Below, piece by piece: positions 5,752 to 61,459 of a DNA stretch of 64,000 nt. How positions within the stretch are numbered: position 1 is the stretch's first letter; each line of letters starts with the position of its first letter. The stretch is from Patescibacteria group bacterium (GTDB lineage Bacteria; Patescibacteriota; Patescibacteriia; UBA9934): the NCBI GenBank assembly GCA_038064675.1, contig JBBTSM010000003.1:38663-102662 (forward strand), given 5' to 3'. The position numbers were made by a program, and so were the translations under genes. Under the pieces are notes generated by a model that searched no databases, was not told where the DNA came from, and worked only from the letters and a program-made list of their open reading frames with translations.

Positions 5752-7149
5752 TTACCAAACCTCCTTCAGTTTCTGCCCGCTTGGCGTGTCGTCGATGTCA
5801 AAGCTAAGCTTTAACACTTCGTCCCGTAACTCATCGGATTTCTTCCAATCCTTGTTCGATCTTGCCACTTCGCGATCGGTGACCAGCTTCTCGACAGCGC
5901 TCGGAATCGCTAATGGTCGGGCAACAACATCTTCCAGCGCAAGGCCGAGAATTTCGTCCATCGCAAGGAGCGTCGCCGATTTCACTGAACGCTCCATTGA
6001 TACGTGATTGAGTACGCCGTAAAAGATCGCGAGTGCGCCGGGCGTGTCGAGATCGTCGTTAATGTGTTCCATGAACTGCACCATAGATTCCGCATCTGCT
6101 TCGCTCGGCTTCGGCAAATCGCGAACCGCGTTTCGAATATTCCCGAGTGCGATGTGCGACGCCCCAACCGCATCCCACGTGAAGTTCTGCGGCGTTCGAT
6201 AATGTGCGCCGAGGATAAAGAGACGGAAACTCAAGGGATGAATCTTATGCGCCTCCAGATCGGCAACCGTATACGTATTGTTCAACGACTTACTCATCTT
6301 CCCGCCATCAATCTGCAGGAATTCATTATGCATCCAAAAATTCGCTTCAAGACAGTTTCTTGCGGCAAGTGTCTGCGCGATCTCGTTTTCATGATGAACC
6401 GCAATGTGATCGATTCCGCCAGTGTGCACATCGAATGGAACGCCGAGATATTTCTCGCTCATCGCAGAGCATTCAATGTGCCAACCCGGAAACCCAACGC
6501 CCCACGGCGATTCCCACTCCATCTGTCGCTTCTGGGTTGCTGCGTCCGAGCTCGGCGACGGTGAAAACTTCCACAGTGCAAAATCTGACGCATTCTTTTT
6601 GTCTCCAATTGATACGCGAGCGCCACCTTCTTTCTCATCGAGCGACTGCCCGGAAAGCTGGCCGTACGATGAAAGCTTAGACGTATCGAAATACACTCCA
6701 TCCGCAATCGTGTACGTGTAGCCATTCTTCTCGATCTCCTGAATCATCGCGATCTGTTCGGCGATGTGATCAGTTGCCTTCGGGCTGACATGCGGCATGA
6801 GCATGTTGAACCTTTTCATGTCCTCAAAGTAGAGCGCCGTATATTTCGCTGCGATATCCCACGCACTCTCCCCGGTTTTCTCACTCATCATCTGCAGCTT
6901 CTCCGCACCACCGTCAAGATCGCCAACCAAATGTCCAACGTCGGTAATATTAATGGCCTGCGTTACCGCATAGTCGTTCGCCTCAAACATTCTGCGCAGC
7001 GTATCCGCCATGAGGAACGCACGAAAGTTTCCGATGTGTCCACGACCGTAGACCGTAAGACCGCAGCTGTAGATTCCCACTTTTCCCGGCACCAATGGCG
7101 CAAAGGCCTGTTTTTTTCGCCCAAGCGTATTGAAAAGATGAATCGCCAT
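5752..7149 (-). CDS. cysS: cysteine--tRNA ligase
   Basis: HIGN(F) class I motif region, KMSKS motif (KMSKSLNN), length 465 aa. Confidence 0.95.
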   Translation of the reverse strand: MAIHLFNTLGRKKQAFAPLVPGKVGIYSCGLTVYGRGHIGNFRAFLMADTLRRMFEANDYAVTQAINITDVGHLVGDLDGGAEKLQMMSEKTGESAWDIAAKYTALYFEDMKRFNMLMPHVSPKATDHIAEQIAMIQEIEKNGYTYTIADGVYFDTSKLSSYGQLSGQSLDEKEGGARVSIGDKKNASDFALWKFSPSPSSDAATQKRQMEWESPWGVGFPGWHIECSAMSEKYLGVPFDVHTGGIDHIAVHHENEIAQTLAARNCLEANFWMHNEFLQIDGGKMSKSLNNTYTVADLEAHKIHPLSFRLFILGAHYRTPQNFTWDAVGASHIALGNIRNAVRDLPKPSEADAESMVQFMEHINDDLDTPGALAIFYGVLNHVSMERSVKSATLLAMDEILGLALEDVVARPLAIPSAVEKLVTDREVARSNKDWKKSDELRDEVLKLSFDIDDTPSGQKLKEVW

Positions 7150-9037: not shown

Positions 9038-9734
9038 TAATAATGCCTACAGAACAAACGAATTGGCAATCGGTCATTCGAATATTATTCTCATCGACCC
9101 TCATCTCATTATCATGGATCGAGACTGAATGTTCTTTGAATCTCAAAGTACCACGATCAATCACGAGTTTGTTTGGAACAACAAAACGCATCCGAATGAG
9201 AAACTTTCCGCGCCCCGCTCTCAGTGTAAGTTGATTAGTTTGAAATTCGATGTCCCATGGATCCATTGAATACACAAGTTCATTCTCACGAATCGCCAAT
9301 ATTAGCTCACCCTTCTCGTTAAAAAGCCTAACATAAAGCAAAAGAGTTTCACCATCTGACTTGTAGCCGATGATAGGCTGATCTTCAATGATTAAAGGAA
9401 CCTGTGTTTGAAAAATATTTCCACCCAGCACGGTCACCAAATTACCACCGGCGTAATTCAAAAAGTAAGGCTTGCTAATTCCTTTCTGAAGATTGTAAGG
9501 ATTGGAGTTAGCGTTCCTTACAGCATTTCGCGATAGAAGCTTATTCGTAACCTGCTTATGATGAGAGTCGCATAGAAGAGTAATATCTTCCTCGCGATGT
9601 TCTTTGGTATTTGCCCAACCGTTCATGTGATCGTATTCGTAAAGCGGAATGCCACAAATAACGCATCCAAAGCCACATCGCGTCCTGATATTACGAAGCA
9701 TTGCATCAGGTATTTTTGGGCGAGATTCTTTCAT
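8991..9734 (-). CDS. HNH endonuclease domain protein with uncharacterised C-terminal domain
   Basis: N-terminal CGFGCVICG...YEYDHMNGWANTKEH...LLCDSHHKQ (C-x2-C ... H ... C ... HH) HNH motif. About 150 aa follow with no recognisable motif. Confidence 0.6.
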   Translation of the reverse strand: MKESRPKIPDAMLRNIRTRCGFGCVICGIPLYEYDHMNGWANTKEHREEDITLLCDSHHKQVTNKLLSRNAVRNANSNPYNLQKGISKPYFLNYAGGNLVTVLGGNIFQTQVPLIIEDQPIIGYKSDGETLLLYVRLFNEKGELILAIRENELVYSMDPWDIEFQTNQLTLRAGRGKFLIRMRFVVPNKLVIDRGTLRFKEHSVSIHDNEMRVDENNIRMTDCQFVCSVGIIIGKYTGTSGCAIRID

Positions 9735-9776
9735 TACTTGAGTGTAACAAAAAAGAACCGCGGAGGCGATTCTTTT

Positions 9777-9852
9777 TGGTCGGACTAGCGGGGCTCGAAC
9801 CCACGACCTCGTCGTCCCGAACGACGCGCGCTACCAACTGCGCTATAGTCCG
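9777..9852 (-). tRNA. tRNA-Pro (anticodon CGG)
   Basis: Hand-folded cloverleaf. Acceptor CGGACUA/UAGUCCG with C1:G72, D-stem GCGC, anticodon stem CGUCG/CGACG with loop UUCGGGA, T-arm GUGGG-UUCGAGC-CCCGC, discriminator A and CCA encoded. Confidence 0.85.
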
Positions 9853-9957
9853 ATATTGGTGATTGTGACGCAAAGATAGTACTCCCGGTGTACATCTCGA
9901 TTCAAGCAGTTGCGAAGTGCACATTTTTCAGTTACTCTTTTCGGGCACCGGAAATCC

Positions 9958-10045
9958 GGAAGGGTCGCATAGTGGCCTAGTGCGCACGCCTGGAACGCGT
10001 GTATACCGCAAGGTATCGAGAGTTCGAATCTCTCCCCTTCCGCCA
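9958..10045 (+). tRNA. tRNA-Ser (anticodon GGA), class II with long variable arm
   Basis: Acceptor GGAAGGG/CCCUUCC. Anticodon stem CACGC/GCGUG with loop CUGGAAC. 16-nt variable arm UAUACC-GCAA-GGUAUC. T-arm GAGAG-UUCGAAU-CUCUC. Discriminator G and CCA encoded. Confidence 0.85.
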
Positions 10046-10048
10046 GAA

Positions 10049-10079
10049 AAGGACAACCGAATCGGTTGTCCTTTTTTTA
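10049..10079. terminator. bidirectional rho-independent terminator
   Basis: GGACAACCG aat CGGTTGTCC hairpin flanked by an A-run upstream and a T-run downstream. It serves tRNA-Ser (+) and the small minus-strand ORF ending at 10097. Confidence 0.7.
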
Positions 10080-10096
10080 TCGAAAGCTCTCAAGTT

Positions 10097-10428
10097 TTAT
10101 TCTGAGGTTTCTTCACCGCCCTGAAACCTTTCGTTATAATGATTCATGACTTCGTCAATAGAAGCGTCCCAAGGCATGACCGTAACAACAGTTTCACTAT
10201 TGAGAGAGACATTTATCGGTTGTCCCACCCTCTGAACAATGGCGAAAACTTTTACCACACAGTCTCGAACATCCTCACCACCTCGAGCGGTATATACATT
10301 ATCAACAATACCCTCTGCCGAACTCGAATAATTTAATGGCCCACGATAAATTTTCAATGGCACTTTTTCCACTTTCGGAGGAACGGGAGACTCAAACGGG
10401 TTAGACATATCCGTAAGTCTACATGACA
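10097..10428 (-). CDS. hypothetical small protein
   Basis: C-terminal part of the 10097..10651 ORF. The upstream portion overlaps a tRNA gene and is rejected. Candidate starts are at 10428 or 10407. Confidence 0.3.
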
Positions 10429-10491
10429 TATCCCGGAGAGTGTCTTGTTGGTTGTGGAAAAGCATCCTACACTTCTCCCGACATTCTTCTC

Positions 10492-10596
10492 CGAGCCGTA
10501 GCGCAGTGGTAGCGCGCTTGCATGGCGCTCGACGAGCTGAGCTAAGCGAGGAGAGTGTGCAAGAGGTCGTGGGTTCAACCCCCATCGGCTCGACCA
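10492..10596 (+). tRNA. aberrant 105-nt tRNA gene with ~30-nt insertion in the anticodon loop region (intron-like); identity undetermined
   Basis: Canonical acceptor stem CGAGCCG/CGGCUCG (C1:G72), D-arm GCGC-AGUGGUA-GCGC, T-arm GUGGG-UUCAACC-CCCAU, discriminator A and CCA encoded. The anticodon stem halves CUUGC (10517-21) and GCAAG (10559-63) are separated by 37 nt instead of 7. Confidence 0.5.
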
Positions 10597-10636
10597 GAAC
10601 GTCACTCTTCATGAGTGATTTTTTGTTTGTTTCTTT

Positions 10637-10665
10637 TTGACATTTCCTCATTTCTCTGCTATATT
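10637..10665 (+). promoter_or_regulatory. sigma70-like promoter (TTGACA-N17-TATATT)
   Basis: Consensus -35 TTGACA at 10637-10642, a 17-nt spacer and -10 TATATT at 10660-10665, upstream of the small ORF at 10724. Confidence 0.55.
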
Positions 10666-10723
10666 CTTCGGTCGAGTGGGAGCGTTCCGCTACCCCTCAC
10701 AGCCCCACAAGGAGGGGGTTCAC

Positions 10724-15697: not shown

Positions 15698-16456
15698 TCA
15701 GCTCCGGCACTTCTTTGCGCCTCTTTTTATCCACATTATGAAGAAGATGCCGATTCCGAAAAAGACAATGGAAAAGTACTGCCCAGGGGTTAGTCCGAAG
15801 TAACGCACATCAATGACGCGTAAGAAATCGAGACCGAAGCGCGTTGCGCCGTACCAGATCGAAAACACGGCGATATAGATTCCAACAGGACGCTGCTTTC
15901 TCGACAGCCACAGAAACACCATCGCGAGCACACATGCATTCACCGATTCGTATAATCCAAGATCATGCCGCACAACACCGTCGGGATACTGCACGCCGAG
16001 CAAGAAGTGCGTTGCGGTTCCGGGATGGTCGTGAATAAGAAAACACCCAATACGTCCAATCCACATCCCAAACGGCATACCGAACGCAACAATATCGGTG
16101 TACCGAAGCAGATCAACTTTCCGATGACGCAAATACAGAATGCCCGTTATCGATGCAACGACGAAGCCGCCGTAAATCGATAATCCACCTTTCCAGATCT
16201 CGAACACTTCGGTGAAGTGCGCCGCGTAATATCCAGGATCGTAAAACAGTACGTGACCAAGTCTTCCACCAACCATTCCCGTAATCGCCACCCACGTCAG
16301 CATGTCCCACACAATTTGCGGATCATCCCCGCGCTGCTTCGCAAGTCGTGCCGCCATGAAAGCGCCGAGGAGAAAGCCGAAGGCAACGAACAAACCCCAG
16401 ACGTGGAGAGTGAGAGGGCCAAGGGAGAAGATTGTGAGGGAGAAGTATGGGATCAT
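15698..16456 (-). CDS. lgt: prolipoprotein diacylglyceryl transferase
   Basis: 252-aa polytopic membrane protein with Lgt signature regions (GGRLGHVLFY..., IGRIGCFL..H). Confidence 0.9.
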   Translation of the reverse strand: MIPYFSLTIFSLGPLTLHVWGLFVAFGFLLGAFMAARLAKQRGDDPQIVWDMLTWVAITGMVGGRLGHVLFYDPGYYAAHFTEVFEIWKGGLSIYGGFVVASITGILYLRHRKVDLLRYTDIVAFGMPFGMWIGRIGCFLIHDHPGTATHFLLGVQYPDGVVRHDLGLYESVNACVLAMVFLWLSRKQRPVGIYIAVFSIWYGATRFGLDFLRVIDVRYFGLTPGQYFSIVFFGIGIFFIMWIKRGAKKCRS

Positions 16457-16923
16457 ACCAAAGCCCCCTCCGACTCCCCCATAAATGGGGGAGAGATATC
16501 ATCGAGCGTTCGTTCGATCGTTTTGATTACAGATACGGGGCTGTTCATAATTTCTTCGTTTCGGATTCGGAGGATGGCGTAGCCAGCACTCCTTAAATAC
16601 TCCTCACGATCTTCATCGTACTTTTTCGCGGCGTCAGAATCATGGACTGATCCGTCGATTTCAATAACGAGCTTCGCCTCATCACAGTATAAATCAACAA
16701 TGTAGAGCCCAATTCCATGTTGACGACGAAACTTCTTCCCACGAACCCTTCTCATTCGCACTAAATTCCAAAGAATCTTTTCCGCCGGAGTTTCGTTTGC
16801 TCTTAAATCACGCTGTCGTTCAACATACTTCGCGAGACCGCGAATTCGATCTCCAATAACCCGAAGCTTCCGATATGACTTCTCTCCCCCATTTATGGGG
16901 GAGTCGGAGGGGGCTTCGATCAT
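16453..16923 (-). CDS. DUF559 (Vsr-like very-short-patch-repair endonuclease fold) domain protein
   Basis: Core ...ETPAEKILWNLVRMRRVRGKKFRRQHGIGLYIVDLYCDEAKLVIEIDGSVHD...YLRSAGYAILRIRNEEI matches the DUF559/Vsr-like family. The first ~20 and last ~12 codons are encoded by the inverted repeats. Confidence 0.75.
   Translation of the reverse strand: MIEAPSDSPINGGEKSYRKLRVIGDRIRGLAKYVERQRDLRANETPAEKILWNLVRMRRVRGKKFRRQHGIGLYIVDLYCDEAKLVIEIDGSVHDSDAAKKYDEDREEYLRSAGYAILRIRNEEIMNSPVSVIKTIERTLDDISPPFMGESEGALV
16461..16496. repeat. 36-bp inverted repeat, left arm (GC-rich palindromic element family)
   Basis: aagccccctccgactcccccataaatgggggagaga. Its exact reverse complement is at 16881..16916. It contains the internal hairpin CTCCCCCAT-aa-ATGGGGGAG. 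Confidence 0.9.
16881..16916. repeat. 36-bp inverted repeat, right arm
   Basis: Perfect reverse complement of 16461..16496. Confidence 0.9.
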
Positions 16924-19093: not shown

Positions 19094-21370
<2,277 letters not shown>

Positions 21371-24342: not shown

Positions 24343-24361
24343 GGTGTTAAAGCTTAGCTTT
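24343..24361. repeat. REP-like palindromic repeat copy 1 (gtgttaaagcttagctttg)
   Basis: Contains the AAAGCT-t-AGCTTT palindrome. Three copies flank the RAYT-like gene. Confidence 0.7.
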
Positions 24362-24403
24362 GACACCGTAACACTGATCAAATCTCCCAAATAATTTGAA
24401 GAT

Positions 24404-25042
24404 TCAAATGTTAAAGCTTAGCTTTGCCATATCACGATGTGGGATCCAGGATCTCACAAATTCTAGATACTCTTCTGGCGGTATGAGTGATGCCAAAAAT
24501 TCTGGATGAATAATGGGATCGATTGTTTTACCGATGTAATGACGAAAACTTGACCATGGATACTCAAGAAGCTTTTCAAAACGACCTTCGCTATCAGCGA
24601 ACAGGTCGAGTTGATTCAGATGAACGTAACGTGTCGAATGAAGAAACTGACGATCGTCCTCGATCAAAACAGACTTATACGATGATTCGAATAAGGATCC
24701 GGTCCGATCGTATTTTCGATTAAAGTACTTCGTGTACCCCGTACCAAGTCGCTGCATAAACCTCGCAACACCATCATCAGCGATCTGTTTCACGATAAAG
24801 TGAACGTGATTATTCATCAATGTGTAACAAATGATCTCGACCAAAGGAGTCGTCGAACGTAGCGGATGACTGCCGTCTTCTCCGAGCTCAGGCTTCCTTG
24901 CGATCACTTCATCGTCGTTGAATAGAATGCAACCTCGAAGAAATCGACGTCGATCCTCATCACACAGAAAGGTATCCCGCCGATCAACTCCACGGTTGTA
25001 AATATGGTAATAACAGCCCGCTACCATCGGAGTAACACGCAT
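24404..25042 (-). CDS. IS200/IS605-like Y1 HuH transposase family protein (REP-associated tyrosine transposase-like)
   Basis: HuH motif NHVHFIV, downstream GTGYTKYFN (candidate catalytic Tyr region), 212 aa, bracketed by REP-like palindromes. Confidence 0.7.
   Translation of the reverse strand: MRVTPMVAGCYYHIYNRGVDRRDTFLCDEDRRRFLRGCILFNDDEVIARKPELGEDGSHPLRSTTPLVEIICYTLMNNHVHFIVKQIADDGVARFMQRLGTGYTKYFNRKYDRTGSLFESSYKSVLIEDDRQFLHSTRYVHLNQLDLFADSEGRFEKLLEYPWSSFRHYIGKTIDPIIHPEFLASLIPPEEYLEFVRSWIPHRDMAKLSFNI
24409..24426. repeat. REP-like repeat copy 2
   Basis: tgttaaagcttagctttg. Confidence 0.7.
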
Positions 25043-25066: not shown

Positions 25067-25085
25067 GTGTTAAAGCTTAGCTTTG
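25067..25085. repeat. REP-like repeat copy 3
   Basis: gtgttaaagcttagctttg, immediately upstream of the RAYT-like gene start. Confidence 0.7.
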
Positions 25086-25504
25086 TTTTTCACCCCATCC
25101 AACGTTTCATTCACCAGCGCGTCGGCGGCAGTATTTTGTTCGCGGAACACATGAGAGAATGTCGCTTTCCTGAATTTCGTTCGGAGATTGTGCACCTCAA
25201 GGAACCGCTTAGCGATTTCGGCATTTTTCACACGGTAGATACCGTTAATCTGCTTCACCGCCAGCTCGGAATCGAGGCGAACATCAATTTCCTCATATCC
25301 AAGATCGAGCGCCTTTTGTAAACCAATGATGATACCGGTGTACTCTGCTTGATTGTTCGTATCGATCCCAATGTACTTCGCGGCATCAGCAACGCGCTCG
25401 CCCTGCTCTCCGGCCGCCGATAACACAAAAAGAACTGCGGCGCCAGCAGCAGGCCCCGGATTTCCTCGACTCCCCCCGTCGGCGTACATTCTCACTTTTT
25501 TCAT
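25070..25504 (-). CDS. rnhA: ribonuclease HI
   Basis: YADGGSRGNPGPAAG...QAEYTGII..L...E..VRLDSELAVKQ pattern of RNase H. Start MKKVRMY at 25504 forms an ATGA overlap with the recJ stop. Confidence 0.85.
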   Translation of the reverse strand: MKKVRMYADGGSRGNPGPAAGAAVLFVLSAAGEQGERVADAAKYIGIDTNNQAEYTGIIIGLQKALDLGYEEIDVRLDSELAVKQINGIYRVKNAEIAKRFLEVHNLRTKFRKATFSHVFREQNTAADALVNETLDGVKNKAKL

Positions 25505-32085: not shown

Positions 32086-33240
32086 TTAGCACGAAATCAC
32101 TCCACTCCCAATAAGCTCTTCTCCACGATAAAATGCAATGAATTGCCCAGGTGCGACGGCGCGTTGAGGAGAAGAAAAGTGAACAACAAATGCAACGGAG
32201 AGCGATGGGGTCAGGTCTTTACCTTTTACTTTTTCAATAACACATTCTGCCAATGGCTGCCGGTATCGGATCCTCGCCATGATCGGCTCACCGATCGCAT
32301 GGTCGATTGCGCCAGGAATGGTTTCGCTGATGTTCGTCGCGACAAGATCCGATCGGAACAGTGCCGGATCATCGGCTCCAACGGCAACAATCACTTCGTT
32401 TGTTTCCGGCCTGCGATCAACAACATATAGCGGCGTGCCTCCGCCGATTCCTAATCCCCCACGCTGGCCGATAGTGTAAAACTCGAATCCACGATGCTTG
32501 CCGAGGACTTTCCCCTCAGTCGTCACGATATTGCCGTCATGCGGCGTAATACGAGCCTCAAGAAACTGTTGCATGTCTACTTGACCAACGAAGCAAATGC
32601 CTTGGCTGTCTCTCTTTTGGGCAGTGGGCAAGTGGGCAAGCTGGGCAAGGCGCCGAACCTCGGCCTTCTGCAAGTCACCGATGGGAAAGAGTGATCGCTT
32701 CAACTGATCCTGATTCAGCTGACACAAGAAATAGGTTTGATCTTTATTTTCGTCGAGGCCGACGAGCAAGTGAGCAGAACCTTCCCCCTTACCCCCGCTC
32801 TCCTCGCCCGCCGCAGCTCGTCGAGCGCCTTCGTAAGGAGTGGGAGTGTCATCAACCCTTCGCGCGTAATGGCCAGTCGCAATGAAATCACAGCCGAGCT
32901 TATCGGCTTCCTTCAAAAACAAATCGAACTTCATGTACTTATTGCACAGCACGTCCGGATTCGGTGTTCGTCCGGCTTTGTATTCGTCAATCATGTATTC
33001 GTACACCTTCGATCGGTACTGCTCCTCAAAATCAAATGTATAAAATTTCAATCCCAACTGCCCAGCAACGCGCATTGCATCACGTCGCTCTCGTCGCCAC
33101 TCGCACTCCTCGCCGTCGTCGTTCGTGCTCCAGTTTTTCATGAAGCCACCAATCACCTCGTATCCTTGTTCCAACAACAACACCGCAGCAACGCTGCTGT
33201 CCACGCCGCCAGACATTCCAAGGAGAACGCGCTTCGCCAT
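32086..33240 (-). CDS. mnmA: tRNA 2-thiouridine(34) synthase MnmA
   Basis: PP-loop SGGVDSSVAA, catalytic Cys regions, CDFIATGHYARR. Contains a ~20-aa repeat-derived insertion. Confidence 0.95.
   Translation of the reverse strand: MAKRVLLGMSGGVDSSVAAVLLLEQGYEVIGGFMKNWSTNDDGEECEWRRERRDAMRVAGQLGLKFYTFDFEEQYRSKVYEYMIDEYKAGRTPNPDVLCNKYMKFDLFLKEADKLGCDFIATGHYARRVDDTPTPYEGARRAAAGEESGGKGEGSAHLLVGLDENKDQTYFLCQLNQDQLKRSLFPIGDLQKAEVRRLAQLAHLPTAQKRDSQGICFVGQVDMQQFLEARITPHDGNIVTTEGKVLGKHRGFEFYTIGQRGGLGIGGGTPLYVVDRRPETNEVIVAVGADDPALFRSDLVATNISETIPGAIDHAIGEPIMARIRYRQPLAECVIEKVKGKDLTPSLSVAFVVHFSSPQRAVAPGQFIAFYRGEELIGSGVISC
32781..32846. repeat. degenerate GC-rich palindromic element inserted in-frame in mnmA (encodes ...TPTPYEGARRAAAGEESGGKGEGS...)
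   Basis: cttcccccttacccccgctctcc ... gccTTCGTAAGGAGtgggag. Shares the TTCGTAAGG core with the ligA and uvrB copies. Confidence 0.5.
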
Positions 33241-33345
33241 ACAAAAGTAAAAGGTAAAGACCTGACCCCGTTATTACGTCACGTTACGTCATTAGATATT
33301 CCAAGGAGAACTTTCTTTGGCATACAATGCGTCTATAGTGTACCG

Positions 33346-33443
33346 GAATGCCCAGATCCTGAGCGCATGCGAAGGATCCCGAGTGCGCCCAGATGGAACC
33401 TTCACGCATCTGACAGAGACCCTTCGCATACGCTCAGGGTCTA
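33346..33443. repeat. structured intergenic repeat, family A/B copy 2
   Basis: See 21176..21278. Here the H1 loop cctgagcgcatgcgaagg is complementary to the later ccttcgcatacgctcagg (1 mismatch). Confidence 0.65.
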
Positions 33444-53219: not shown

Positions 53220-53296
53220 ATGGGGGAAAGTAAAAGGTAAAGACCTGACCCCTTAGTTATACCTCGAATAACGAATCGATCAATACGGTTATCCTC

Positions 53297-59389: not shown

Positions 59390-61459
59390 TTACTTTCCGC
59401 GAGATCGCTTCCCTTTCTTTCCCTTCTTCATTCCCAACAACTCTTTACTCAACAACGCGATTTCATCTCGCAGAATCGCCGCGGTCTCGAAGAGCAAGTT
59501 TGCCGATGCTTTGTCCATTTCAATTTCCTTCTCACGAATCGCCTCCTCAATCTCCATCGGCGTTGCGCCAATTTCGATGTCGAGAATCTTTGATGTGTCG
59601 GCCTCAAAATTCCGATCGAGTTCTGCGCGAATGTCTTTAATCGTCTTGATAATCGTTTGCGGCGTGATGCCGTGCTTGATGTTATGTGCGATCTGGATAG
59701 TACGACGACGTTCAGTTTCCTTCAGCGCCCTGTCGAGCGATCCTGTCATTTTATCGGCGTACAGAACAACCAAACCGTTCACGTTACGCGCCGCACGGCC
59801 GATAGTCTGAATCAACGACGTTTCCGATCGCAAGAATCCTTCCTTATCCGCATCGAGAACACCGATGAGCGAAACTTCTGGGAGATCGAGACCTTCGCGA
59901 AGCAAGTTCACTCCAACCACAACATCGTATGTTCCCCGTCGGAGCTCGGATAAGATAGTAATTCGATCCAAGGTTTCGACATCCGAGTGCAAATACGCAA
60001 CCTTCATTCCGCCTTCTTTGAGGTACGTCGTCAAATCCTCCGCCATCTTCTTCGTCAGCGTCGTCACCAACGCTCGCTCACCTTTTGTAACACGGTCCTT
60101 AATGCGCTCGACAATATCGGCGACTTGGCCCGGGAAAGGACCCCCTCCGACTCCCCCTTCGTAAGGGGGAGCGTTGTCGGTCTGCGTTACTGGCAGCACC
60201 AATGTTTCTGGATCGACCAATCCCGTTGGACGAATAATCTGTTCAACGATCTTTTCCGATGTTTCCCTCTCAACCACTCCAGGCGTTGCTGAAACGTAGA
60301 CAGTCTGACCGATCGTCTTATCGAACTCTTGGTATGTTAACGGTCGATTATCCTTTGCCGATGGAAGACGGAATCCGAAATCGACCAACGTCTGTTTTCG
60401 GGCCTGATCACCGGCGAACATACCACCGATCTGTGGGAGCGTGACGTGTGATTCGTCGATAATCGTCAAGAAATCCTTCGGGAAATACGACAGCAACGTG
60501 TGTGCCGGTTCACCAACGCGACGGCCGTCGAAGTGACGGGAATAGTTTTCAATTCCGCTACAGTATCCAACATTCCGAATCATCTCGATGTCGTATCTCG
60601 TACGTCGAGTTAAGCGTTCGGACTCTAAAAGCTTTCCCTCGATTTCGAATTCCTTGAGTCTATCAGCGAGCTCGGCTTCAATATCACGGATCGCGCGTTC
60701 CCGTTCGGCGGAATCGGACATGAAATGTTTCGCCGGAAAGAACCACGCATCCTCATTTTGTGTAAGGATTTTTCGCGTCACTTTGTTCAGCGCAAAAATT
60801 TCACGCACCGCATTGCCCTCAATAACAATGCGATACACCGTTTCATCGCTCGGCGGCATCACCTCGATGACATCACCGTTCGCGCGGAAGTGACCACGGG
60901 TTAAATCAGCATTCGTTCGCTCGTACTGCATCGCCACGAGCTGACGGAGAAAATCTGCACGATCGATCCGATCGTTCACTCGGAGATGAAGAACCTCGCG
61001 CTTGTACGCTTCTGGCGAACCCAAGCCGTAAATACAACTCACCGATGCAACCACAATGACATCGCGCCTCGATAACAACGACTGCGTTGCAGCGTGGCGC
61101 AATCGATCGATCTCCTCGTTAATCTGCGCGTCCTTTTCGATGTACGTATCTGTTCTCGGCATGTACGCCTCTGGCTGGTAGTAGTCGTAATAGGAAACGA
61201 AGTACGACACCGCATTGTCTGGAAAAAAATCGCGGAATTCGGAACACAACTGCGCGGCAAGGGTTTTGTTGTGCGCGATGACGAGCGTCGGTTTCTGCAC
61301 ATTCTGAATAACATTCGCCATCGTAAAAGTTTTTCCCGAACCCGTAACACCAAGAAGCGTCTGCCGATGCAGACCGTCCTTGATCCCATCGGTGAGATCC
61401 GCAATTGCCTTCGGCTGATCGCCCGCTGGAGAATATTTTGAGACGAGATTGAATGACAT
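59390..61459 (-). CDS. uvrB: excinuclease ABC subunit B
   Basis: Helicase motifs (GVTGSGKT, DESH), UvrB interaction domain, C-terminal basic tail. Contains an in-frame palindromic-element insertion. Confidence 0.95.
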   Translation of the reverse strand: MSFNLVSKYSPAGDQPKAIADLTDGIKDGLHRQTLLGVTGSGKTFTMANVIQNVQKPTLVIAHNKTLAAQLCSEFRDFFPDNAVSYFVSYYDYYQPEAYMPRTDTYIEKDAQINEEIDRLRHAATQSLLSRRDVIVVASVSCIYGLGSPEAYKREVLHLRVNDRIDRADFLRQLVAMQYERTNADLTRGHFRANGDVIEVMPPSDETVYRIVIEGNAVREIFALNKVTRKILTQNEDAWFFPAKHFMSDSAERERAIRDIEAELADRLKEFEIEGKLLESERLTRRTRYDIEMIRNVGYCSGIENYSRHFDGRRVGEPAHTLLSYFPKDFLTIIDESHVTLPQIGGMFAGDQARKQTLVDFGFRLPSAKDNRPLTYQEFDKTIGQTVYVSATPGVVERETSEKIVEQIIRPTGLVDPETLVLPVTQTDNAPPYEGGVGGGPFPGQVADIVERIKDRVTKGERALVTTLTKKMAEDLTTYLKEGGMKVAYLHSDVETLDRITILSELRRGTYDVVVGVNLLREGLDLPEVSLIGVLDADKEGFLRSETSLIQTIGRAARNVNGLVVLYADKMTGSLDRALKETERRRTIQIAHNIKHGITPQTIIKTIKDIRAELDRNFEADTSKILDIEIGATPMEIEEAIREKEIEMDKASANLLFETAAILRDEIALLSKELLGMKKGKKGKRSRGK
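60141..60171. repeat. GC-rich palindromic element inserted in-frame in uvrB (encodes NAPPYEGGVGGGP)
   Basis: ccccctccgactccccc + CTCCCCCTT-cgt-AAGGGGGAG. The 17-mer ccccctccgactccccc is identical to the DUF559 inverted-repeat arm at 16465-16481. Confidence 0.75.

Follow-up and report, generated by a model that had tools for sequence, protein, structure and literature searches.

Two nested short hairpin repeats probably lengthen a repeatedly filled loop of MnmA in a Patescibacteria bacterium

In-frame selfish palindromic elements are a textbook curiosity of Rickettsia, where they were reportedly described as Rickettsia palindromic elements (RPEs) by Ogata et al. in 2000. RPEs are palindromic repeats of ~100-150 bp that lie in-frame in genes unrelated to one another, where the protein fold can accommodate them (PMC10969869). 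The 64,000-nt stretch analysed here (the window: contig JBBTSM010000003.1 of assembly GCA_038064675.1, positions 38,663 to 102,662 of the forward strand) comes from a groundwater bacterium of the Patescibacteria, or Candidate Phyla Radiation (CPR), and carries palindromic elements (PEs) of only 33-39 nt, encoding 10-14 amino acids. One of these lies in mnmA. With a probability of about 0.7, the extra loop of this MnmA is made of two short hairpin repeats, one nested in the other, which entered in-frame into a permissive and repeatedly targeted loop. Palindromic elements in CPR coding genes were not found described in the literature.

The host gene occupies positions 32086-33240 on the minus strand and is a 384-aa open reading frame (ORF) with matches in Pfam, NCBI and PDB. 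Its product is 100% identical to an NCBI Patescibacteria MnmA and is present on 5 contigs from 3 sources. It contains the Pfam domains PF03054, PF20259 and PF20258 (tRNA_Me_trans), the SGGVDS motif and Cys99/Cys216, and residues 3-382 are homologous over the full length to the solved MnmA structures (2hma, 9hlv and 2der, E 1e-87 to 1e-95). In a phmmer comparison with the PDB, residues 3-131 and 153-382 pair with two stretches of solved MnmA, 9-137 and 139-362, that are contiguous. With E. coli 2der the alignment is broken at the same point, leaving ~20 residues (132-152) without a counterpart. The loop region reads ...GHYARRVDDTPTPYEGARRAAAGEESGGKGEGSAHLLVGLDENKDQ..., while the usual orthologue loop is RRVDDENGVAHLL. 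The insert itself spans 32779-32847 on the minus strand (gene nt 394-462, residues T132-G154) and makes the loop longer, by a net 20 residues, than its ancestral form DDENGVAHLL. A preliminary description of the locus had already pointed to an extra loop of ~20 residues, and this is indeed absent from the solved MnmA structures and from most close orthologues. In the AlphaFold2 (AF2) model, whose mean predicted local distance difference test score (pLDDT) is 84.7, the insert falls between strands 126-130 and 156-160, and its pLDDT of 56-62 makes it the main low-confidence stretch of the N-terminal domain. Its predicted place is at the tip of a beta-hairpin on the surface.

On the coding strand, the segment can be read as three consecutive parts, ACTCCCACTCCTTACGAAGG, CGCTCGACGAGCTGCGGCGGGCGAGGAGAG and CGGGGGTAAGGGGGAAGGT. 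The first (32828-32847, minus strand) is the 5' part of a type A PE, with its left arm, its loop and the start of its right arm. It is 19/20 identical to the PE copy in ligA, and nhmmer, using a PE profile built from 10 copies, recognizes it as a half-match to model positions 2-20. The second part (32798-32827, minus strand) is a 30-nt hairpin block encoding roughly ARRAAAGEES. The third (32779-32797, minus strand) contains the rest of the right arm and a G-rich tail, and pairs with PE model positions ~21-35 once the block is removed. The native segment thus gives only a half-length match to the profile (E=1.4), whereas deletion in silico of 32798-32827 yields a full-length one, covering model positions 1-35 of 39 with 16.8 bits and E=3e-4 for the window. 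Because deleting these 30 nt restores the full-length match, the segment is read as a moderately diverged PE split by a discrete block of 10 codons. Its outer parts match the type A copies present at the same MnmA loop in the orthologues P0027 (ACTCCCCCTCCTTTCGAAGGAGGGGGCAAGGGGGAGGTG) and P0018. At the peptide level, TPTPYEG[ARRAAAGEES]GGKGEG corresponds to TPPPFEGGGKGEV in P0027.

The preliminary description had taken this segment for a degenerate copy of the element found in-frame in ligA and uvrB, and had named two DNA pieces of it. Both are present, CCTTCGTAAGGAGTGGG at 32828-32844, recurring with 1 mismatch in ligA at 20598-20614, and CCCCCTTACCCCC at 32784-32796, and the full-length profile match obtained after removal of the block supports the derivation from that element. 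The word degenerate is right in that the mnmA copy is more altered than the perfect hairpins of ligA and uvrB, but its length and the loss of its hairpin come from the 30-nt block and not from gradual decay. A single old PE copy, worn by point mutations and small indels under selection for the reading frame, is therefore given poor odds. It would account for the substitutions in the PE parts, since the block-deleted element is 32/39 (82%) identical to the intact type A copies and has one stem mismatch, while the hairpins of ligA and uvrB are still perfect. It does not account for a central stretch that matches an insert in a tRNA gene at 28/34 positions (51 bits against a background of 14), for a full-length element restored by removing exactly 30 nt, or for a segment whose divergence between sister lineages lags far behind that of silent sites.

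That tRNA insert is the only other copy of the block in the window. A repeat search pairs 32777-32829 with 10524-10576, and the homologous stretch in mnmA spans 32796-32829. Its 34-nt core consists of a run of 16/16 identical positions, 6 variable ones and a run of 10/10, in register with the tRNA insert. The two copies differ at 5 of the 6 loop positions, and their stems are identical. A covariance model of the hairpin gives 51.2 bits for both, the next match in the window scores 14 bits, and a search of the whole 64 kb with this model returns no block copies beyond mnmA and the tRNA. Both are predicted to fold alike: after an outer stem of 5-6 bp, a single C-G pair is flanked by two symmetric GA/GA internal loops, and a 3-bp inner stem then leads to the variable 6-nt loop. 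The stems are the same in three sequences whose loops read AGCTAA, CGGCGG and TAGCGG. As for the mRNAs of mnmA and ligA, their predicted hairpins are no better than those of shuffled sequences (z = -0.7 to -1.6).

Chance similarity or an assembly artefact can be given almost no credence. Taken alone, CCCCCTTACCCCC is weak (12/100 shuffles do equally well), and an exact 16-mer shared within 64 kb is, by estimate, not significant either. But the 17-mer CCTTCGTAAGGAGTGGG has 2 matches in the window where 0.07 would be expected by chance, and the in-register 16 + 10 nt, the covariance-model score and the profile score all hold. An artefact is hard to reconcile with an identical protein on 5 contigs from 3 sources, with a composite found in a second species-level lineage, and with a tRNA locus found again in an independent contig.

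The tRNA gene (10492-10593, plus strand) lies 22 kb from the mnmA block and carries its own copy at 10524-10557, in the anticodon loop. With the Rfam tRNA model the gene reaches 55.1 bits (the gathering score is 29), and 34 nt stand against 4 model positions of the anticodon loop; ARAGORN does not detect it. The cloverleaf is complete, the CCA is encoded, a terminator-like hairpin follows at 10601-10619, and an identical locus occurs in an independent groundwater contig from Hainich. The acceptor end is Pro-like (C1:G72, A73), as in the neighbouring tRNA-Pro(CGG), and the anticodon loop reads AUGG[31 nt]GU. We take the anticodon arm to resemble that of E. coli tRNA-Ala(GGC), and the loop presumably resembles the AUGGGGU of tRNA-Pro(GGG). 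Upstream of the conserved flavoprotein gene, the orthologous tRNA is absent altogether in two relatives, and no empty tRNA site was seen there. Neither of the intron types considered fits the insert. An archaeal-type intron was rejected on the predicted fold, in which the anticodon stem is continuously prolonged, with a single 3-nt bulge confined to the 5' side, and which has no bulge-helix-bulge. A group I intron was rejected on size, 30 nt against a ribozyme core of more than 200 nt. No Rfam intron family matches within 9700-10700, and short inserts in CPR tRNA genes were not found described in the literature.

Each of the two targets of the block is a run of G on a DNA hairpin's 3' side, ..AAGG/N/GGGG or ..AUGG/N/GU, and at each site a single nucleotide between GG and G can be regarded as replaced by 31 nt. 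With two cases, this is only a hint of a shared target. Elsewhere, a 20-base block pattern gives more than 120 chance matches in the high-GC genomes of a genome-contig collection and none in Patescibacteria, the sole match of a 23-base pattern in a metagenome collection is the same tRNA locus in the Hainich contig, and patterns for the block and for the cassette ends described below have no matches in scans of a viral collection. This rarity would suit a templated repair patch, in which a single copying event between a break at the PE hairpin in mnmA and the tRNA locus, primed by GG/GGC microhomology, left filler DNA or a short gene conversion. There are just two copies in the 64 kb and the scanned collections, GG(C) is common to both junctions on their 5' side, and hairpin repeats are plausible as break sites. 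Such a patch is nonetheless unlikely: with identical stems and 5/6 loop positions changed, the block looks like a structurally constrained hairpin and not a one-off copy, and the tRNA, which is absent at the orthologous place in relatives, must itself first have gained it.

The history of the composite can be followed in a sister lineage. The 90%-identity cluster of MnmA contains two members of it (89% aa identity) with the same composite, DDTPTPYEGARRAVAGEESVGKGGGLAHLL. Between the two lineages only 4/69 nt of the composite differ (65/69, 94% identity), while the rest of the gene is 81% identical and, in the 100-150 nt on either side of the insert, 29-33% of third codon positions differ. These figures are those of the mnmA copy, as the sister contig ends short of ligA. 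Within the insert 1/23 third positions differs, all four changes alter the peptide, and 2 of the 4 fall in the 6-nt loop of the nested hairpin, the stems being invariant. For a neutral insert dating from the lineage split, the probability of four or fewer differences would be ~1e-7. The preliminary description had seen an older insertion that was decaying; the term is inadequate, because the insert diverges far less than the flanking silent sites (~30%). Either the composite is constrained at the nucleotide level, or it reached both lineages after their divergence.

Constraint of this kind would raise the question of a function. The composite or its nested hairpin could be kept by selection at the RNA or DNA level, as a module recognized by a protein, a regulatory hairpin of the mnmA mRNA or a mini-intron spliced by proteins out of the tRNA and perhaps the mRNA. 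Silent positions are kept (1/23 against ~30% in the flanks) while all four changes are amino-acid altering, the three sequences combine invariant stems with a variable loop, and the tRNA, with its full cloverleaf, encoded CCA and own terminator, does not have the look of a decayed pseudogene. With 30 extra nt in its anticodon loop, a tRNA cannot decode unless it is processed. We nevertheless regard a function of this sort as quite improbable. The predicted folds do no better than shuffled controls (z = -0.7 to -1.6), no compensatory double changes are seen, there is no bulge-helix-bulge geometry, and a splicing endonuclease is not among the findings, no search for one having been made; a recent spread of the composite between lineages would explain the low divergence equally well. 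In a bolder form of the same idea, to which we allow only a slim chance, the 30-nt hairpin would be a structured mini-intervening sequence of a bacterium, acting at the level of nucleic acids, that enters hairpin targets and owes its tolerance either to protein-dependent cutting and ligation of the RNA or to in-frame read-through. Its removal would then restore the tRNA and possibly the mnmA mRNA, and the invariant stems and kept silent sites would reflect recognition by the removal machinery.

In a set of 45 aligned MnmA orthologues, the 34 closest include 12 with an insert at exactly this loop, and at least 3 kinds of insert occur. Type A inserts are found in the window, P0018 and P0027; type B inserts in P0002, P0011 and P0022; and inserts derived from a 'VIPAQAGIQ' palindrome in P0003, P0009, P0012 and P0013. 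P0019 and P0024 have others. In a neighbour-joining (NJ) tree calculated from 329 gap-free MnmA columns, without support values, filled and empty loops are interleaved. The window MnmA groups there with P0006, whose loop is empty, and P0002 (type B), apart from the type A pair P0027/P0018. Because filled and empty loops are interleaved in the tree, the loop appears to have been hit repeatedly and independently. It accommodates many different inserts, and its position, predicted from the AF2 model to be at the surface, may be compatible with the fold. The segment could have been an ordinary protein feature conserved across unrelated MnmA sequences, but orthologue loops are either empty or differently filled. 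Two further loops, near residues 40 and 340, behave likewise. The VIPAQAGIQ palindrome (ATCCCCGCGCAGGCGGGGAT) is also found in a relative, close to the end of secA (L006:1501-1521).

The PE found in mnmA belongs to a repeated palindromic family. The window contains four perfect-hairpin copies of this C-run/G-run element, in ligA, in uvrB and at the two ends of a DUF559 cassette, in addition to the mnmA copy, and more are found in related contigs. The consensus (~39 nt) is ACTCCCCCTCC-TTACGAA-GGAGGGGG-YNR-GGGGGAGGTG and encodes a 13-residue peptide. The copies fall into two mirror-related subtypes of equal length and register: type A has the arms CCCCCTCC/GGAGGGGG and the tail GGGGGAGG, and type B the arms CTCCCCC/GGGGGAG and the tail GGAGGGGG. 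A type A copy with a 10-bp perfect hairpin lies in-frame in ligA (20579-20617, minus strand; coding strand ACTCCCCCTCCTTACGAAGGAGGGGGTCGGGGGGAGGTG), where its 13-residue peptide appears as a 12-residue gap against solved LigA. A type B copy (NAPPYEGGVGGGPF) with a 9-bp perfect hairpin lies in-frame in uvrB (60137-60175, minus strand; coding strand CTCCCCCTTACGAAGGGGGAGTCGGAGGGGGT); its peptide is NAPPYEGGVGGG, and the gap against solved UvrB is 18 residues. In-frame copies are found in unrelated conserved genes, ligA, uvrB and mnmA, each adding a family-specific peptide (TPTPYEG..GGKGEG in mnmA). Three of the five window copies are inside coding sequences of this kind, and the remaining two encode the termini of DUF559. 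The mnmA gene of P0027 alone holds 3 PE copies, one of them in reverse orientation. As a separate matter, the ligA ORF (19094-21310, minus strand) is lengthened by ~70 codons upstream through read-through of a repeat resembling transposable elements of the miniature inverted-repeat type (MITEs). From homology to solved LigA, the true start is likely the ATG at 21100 (MIKAEAKV...).

The two remaining copies bound a small gene. A 156-aa ORF on the minus strand at 16453-16923 encodes a DUF559 endonuclease (Vsr-like, PD-(D/E)XK; Pfam DUF559 E=3e-33), and inverted type B copies at 16461-16502 and 16875-16916 form a 42-nt inverted repeat, 95% complementary, at its ends. The cassette-end sequence AAGCCCCCTCCGACTCCCCCATAAATGGGGGAG matches the type B PE, and the uvrB copy is essentially one cassette end with another loop. 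The first and last ~12 residues of DUF559 are encoded by the repeats, and homologues with 48-60% identity keep these repeat-encoded termini, APSDSPINGG at the N terminus and SPPFMGESEGA or SPSIYGGARGG at the C terminus. The DNA of three homologues has the same ~33-nt ends, inverted (L128:1612-2103, L129:1030-1497 and L130:2439-2924), and in the third of these a loop variant, ATAACT, is matched at both ends. Three gene contexts are seen, Wzy/glycosyltransferase, thioredoxin/thioredoxin reductase and lgt, the last as in the window, and the cassettes are wedged in with overlapping start and stop codons. The short copies have termini in common with a longer, gene-carrying element that is found at different loci, as in MITEs. 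The orthologue P0017 has both cassette-end peptides back to back in the C-terminal loop of its MnmA (APSSSPINGGE..SPPFMEGSGE), which is the expected outcome for an internally deleted cassette.

These comparisons support the view that the cassette ends and the solo PEs are related as a family. The DUF559 cassette looks like a small mobile cassette and is, from its shared termini, a candidate mobiliser of PEs. A literature search found no demonstrated transposase, homing or cleavage activity for DUF559 and no description of an association between DUF559 and repeats, and no target-site duplication is evident at the few junctions inspected. It is possible, and can be proposed tentatively, that DUF559 cassettes, with hairpin repeats at their ends, act as the autonomous partners for a new class of elements which seeds in-frame insertions across Patescibacteria proteomes.

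A model of how the MnmA loop was built can be proposed. A PE of ~39 nt would first have entered in-frame at the tip of the MnmA beta-hairpin, a place where related lineages appear to have gained different repeats independently. A second hairpin of 30 nt would then have landed in the 3' arm of the PE, adding 10 codons and destroying the PE hairpin; this block, with its conserved stems, two tandem G-A/A-G motifs and variable 6-nt loop, is the one whose other copy interrupts the tRNA anticodon loop. The composite is either older than the sister lineage or shared with it. The PEs themselves would be non-autonomous relatives of the terminal inverted repeats of DUF559 cassettes, which may mobilise or seed them, and genic copies would persist only where length, frame and a permissive loop leave the enzyme working.

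Several points weigh against this model. No mnmA carrying a PE without the nested block was found, and for that reason the order of events rests on the in silico deletion; target-site duplications and the exact ends of the PE could not be defined. The NJ tree, as said, carries no support values. The block is present at two genomic sites only, so that its status as a repeat family is putative and its mobility presumed, and the link with DUF559 is an association of sequences. A purely passive passenger would not be predicted to be so highly conserved at the nucleotide level. Finally, the surroundings of the Y1-transposase-like gene of the window, discussed below, argue against a mechanism of the kind used by repetitive extragenic palindromes (REPs) with their associated tyrosine transposases (RAYTs).

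Other repeats surround mnmA in the window. A third repeat, AAAAGTAAAAGGTAAAGACCTGACCCC, is found at 32207-32233 (minus strand), 33243-33269 (plus) and 53227-53259 (plus). One copy falls within mnmA, in the C-terminal loop (EKVKGKDLTP), and this loop exceeds that of the sister lineage by 7 residues. At a distance of 2 nt upstream of the start codon there is a copy of 27 nt that is perfectly complementary; the 5' leader of the mRNA could therefore pair with its own 3' coding region. The first 10 mnmA codons are duplicated (33211-33244 and 33294-33327): a relic start, ATG CCA AAG AAA GTT CTC CTT GGA ATA TCT, followed by a stop four codons later, lies 83 nt upstream of the current one, and repeat DNA fills the space between the two. 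In the sister lineage, just 7 nt separate the pseudouridine synthase gene from mnmA. An 88-nt MITE-like repeat with terminal inverted repeats of ~24 nt (GATCCTGAGCGCATGCGAAGGATC...) has two copies, 81% identical, one just upstream of ligA (21189-21276) and one upstream of mnmA (33355-33442); it is absent upstream of the sister mnmA. Within the gene, at ~32600-32650 (residues 193-210), a patch with just 45% nt identity to the sister gene is built of 8-9-nt CTTGCCCA-like tandem units, which turn the conserved helix VREIAREHKLPVAEKK into VRRLAQLAHLPTAQKR without changing its length.

How do these elements compare with known systems? REPs are extragenic, have a conserved GTAG head and are paired with RAYTs, which are Y1 transposases (REPtrons). 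The PEs resemble them as imperfect dispersed palindromes of 20-40 nt, two inverted copies of which bracket a nuclease-type gene. However, the bracketed gene encodes a DUF559 PD-(D/E)XK endonuclease and not a Y1 transposase, and the PEs are not extragenic. The window does contain a Y1_Tnp (IS200/RAYT-like) gene (24404-25042, minus strand, Pfam E=2.6e-7), but this is flanked by a different 21-nt palindrome, TGTTAAAGCTTAGCTTTGACA, with copies at 24345-24365, 24409-24429, 25068-25088 and 5796-5816, and the same arrangement is found at the sister locus. It may form a REP/RAYT-type pair of its own, unrelated to the C/G-run PE, and a REP/RAYT mechanism for the PEs was rejected on these grounds.

Homing endonuclease genes, which may have a Vsr-like or PD-(D/E)XK fold, are normally not bounded by hairpin terminal inverted repeats that spread alone. 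The DUF559 gene is like them in being a small endonuclease gene wedged between conserved operon genes, in differing contexts and with overlapping start and stop codons; it differs in the hairpin repeats that bound it and also spread alone, and no cleavage site is known. Stem-loops are the targets of other mobile elements, such as IS110/IS1111-type elements, which insert into REPs, and class C group II introns, which insert after terminators. The nested block recalls these by the position of its two copies in hairpin-forming targets, a PE arm and a tRNA anticodon arm, but it has only 30 nt, encodes nothing, is known in two copies and has no identified partner enzyme. MITEs derive from autonomous elements through internal deletion (PMC10969869). 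The cassette ends likewise recur as short non-autonomous copies, and P0017 has both end-peptides back to back; the differences are that most genic PE copies consist of a single end and not of a pair, that no target-site duplication is seen, and that DUF559 has no known transposase activity.

RPEs are the closest analogue. As in Rickettsia, dispersed palindromes lie in-frame in unrelated housekeeping genes of a bacterium with a small genome, each adding a family-specific peptide, and no transposase is known. The differences concern size (33-39 nt, or 10-14 aa, against ~100-150 bp), the host, which belongs to another phylum, and three features of the PEs: the same protein loop is hit repeatedly across lineages, one copy carries a nested second repeat, and the terminal repeats of an endonuclease cassette have the PE sequence as well. 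An RPE-type phenomenon in a CPR bacterium, with much shorter elements, would become testable in its mechanism through these three additions. Repeated colonization of one loop separates the effects of target and tolerance from those of common descent. The sharing of sequence between PEs and cassette ends points to a concrete candidate for the mobilising enzyme that has long been missing, and gives the large DUF559 family a first hint of function. The nested hairpin links an insertion in a protein gene to an interrupted tRNA anticodon loop, with a conservation of silent sites unlike that of passive junk. Such repeats also lengthen and diversify CPR proteins, and mislead gene callers and tRNA finders, as when ARAGORN missed the tRNA. 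By their length the PEs are set apart from the RPE families proper, and homology with these is not expected; by analogy, they would work like RPEs without being members of any RPE family.

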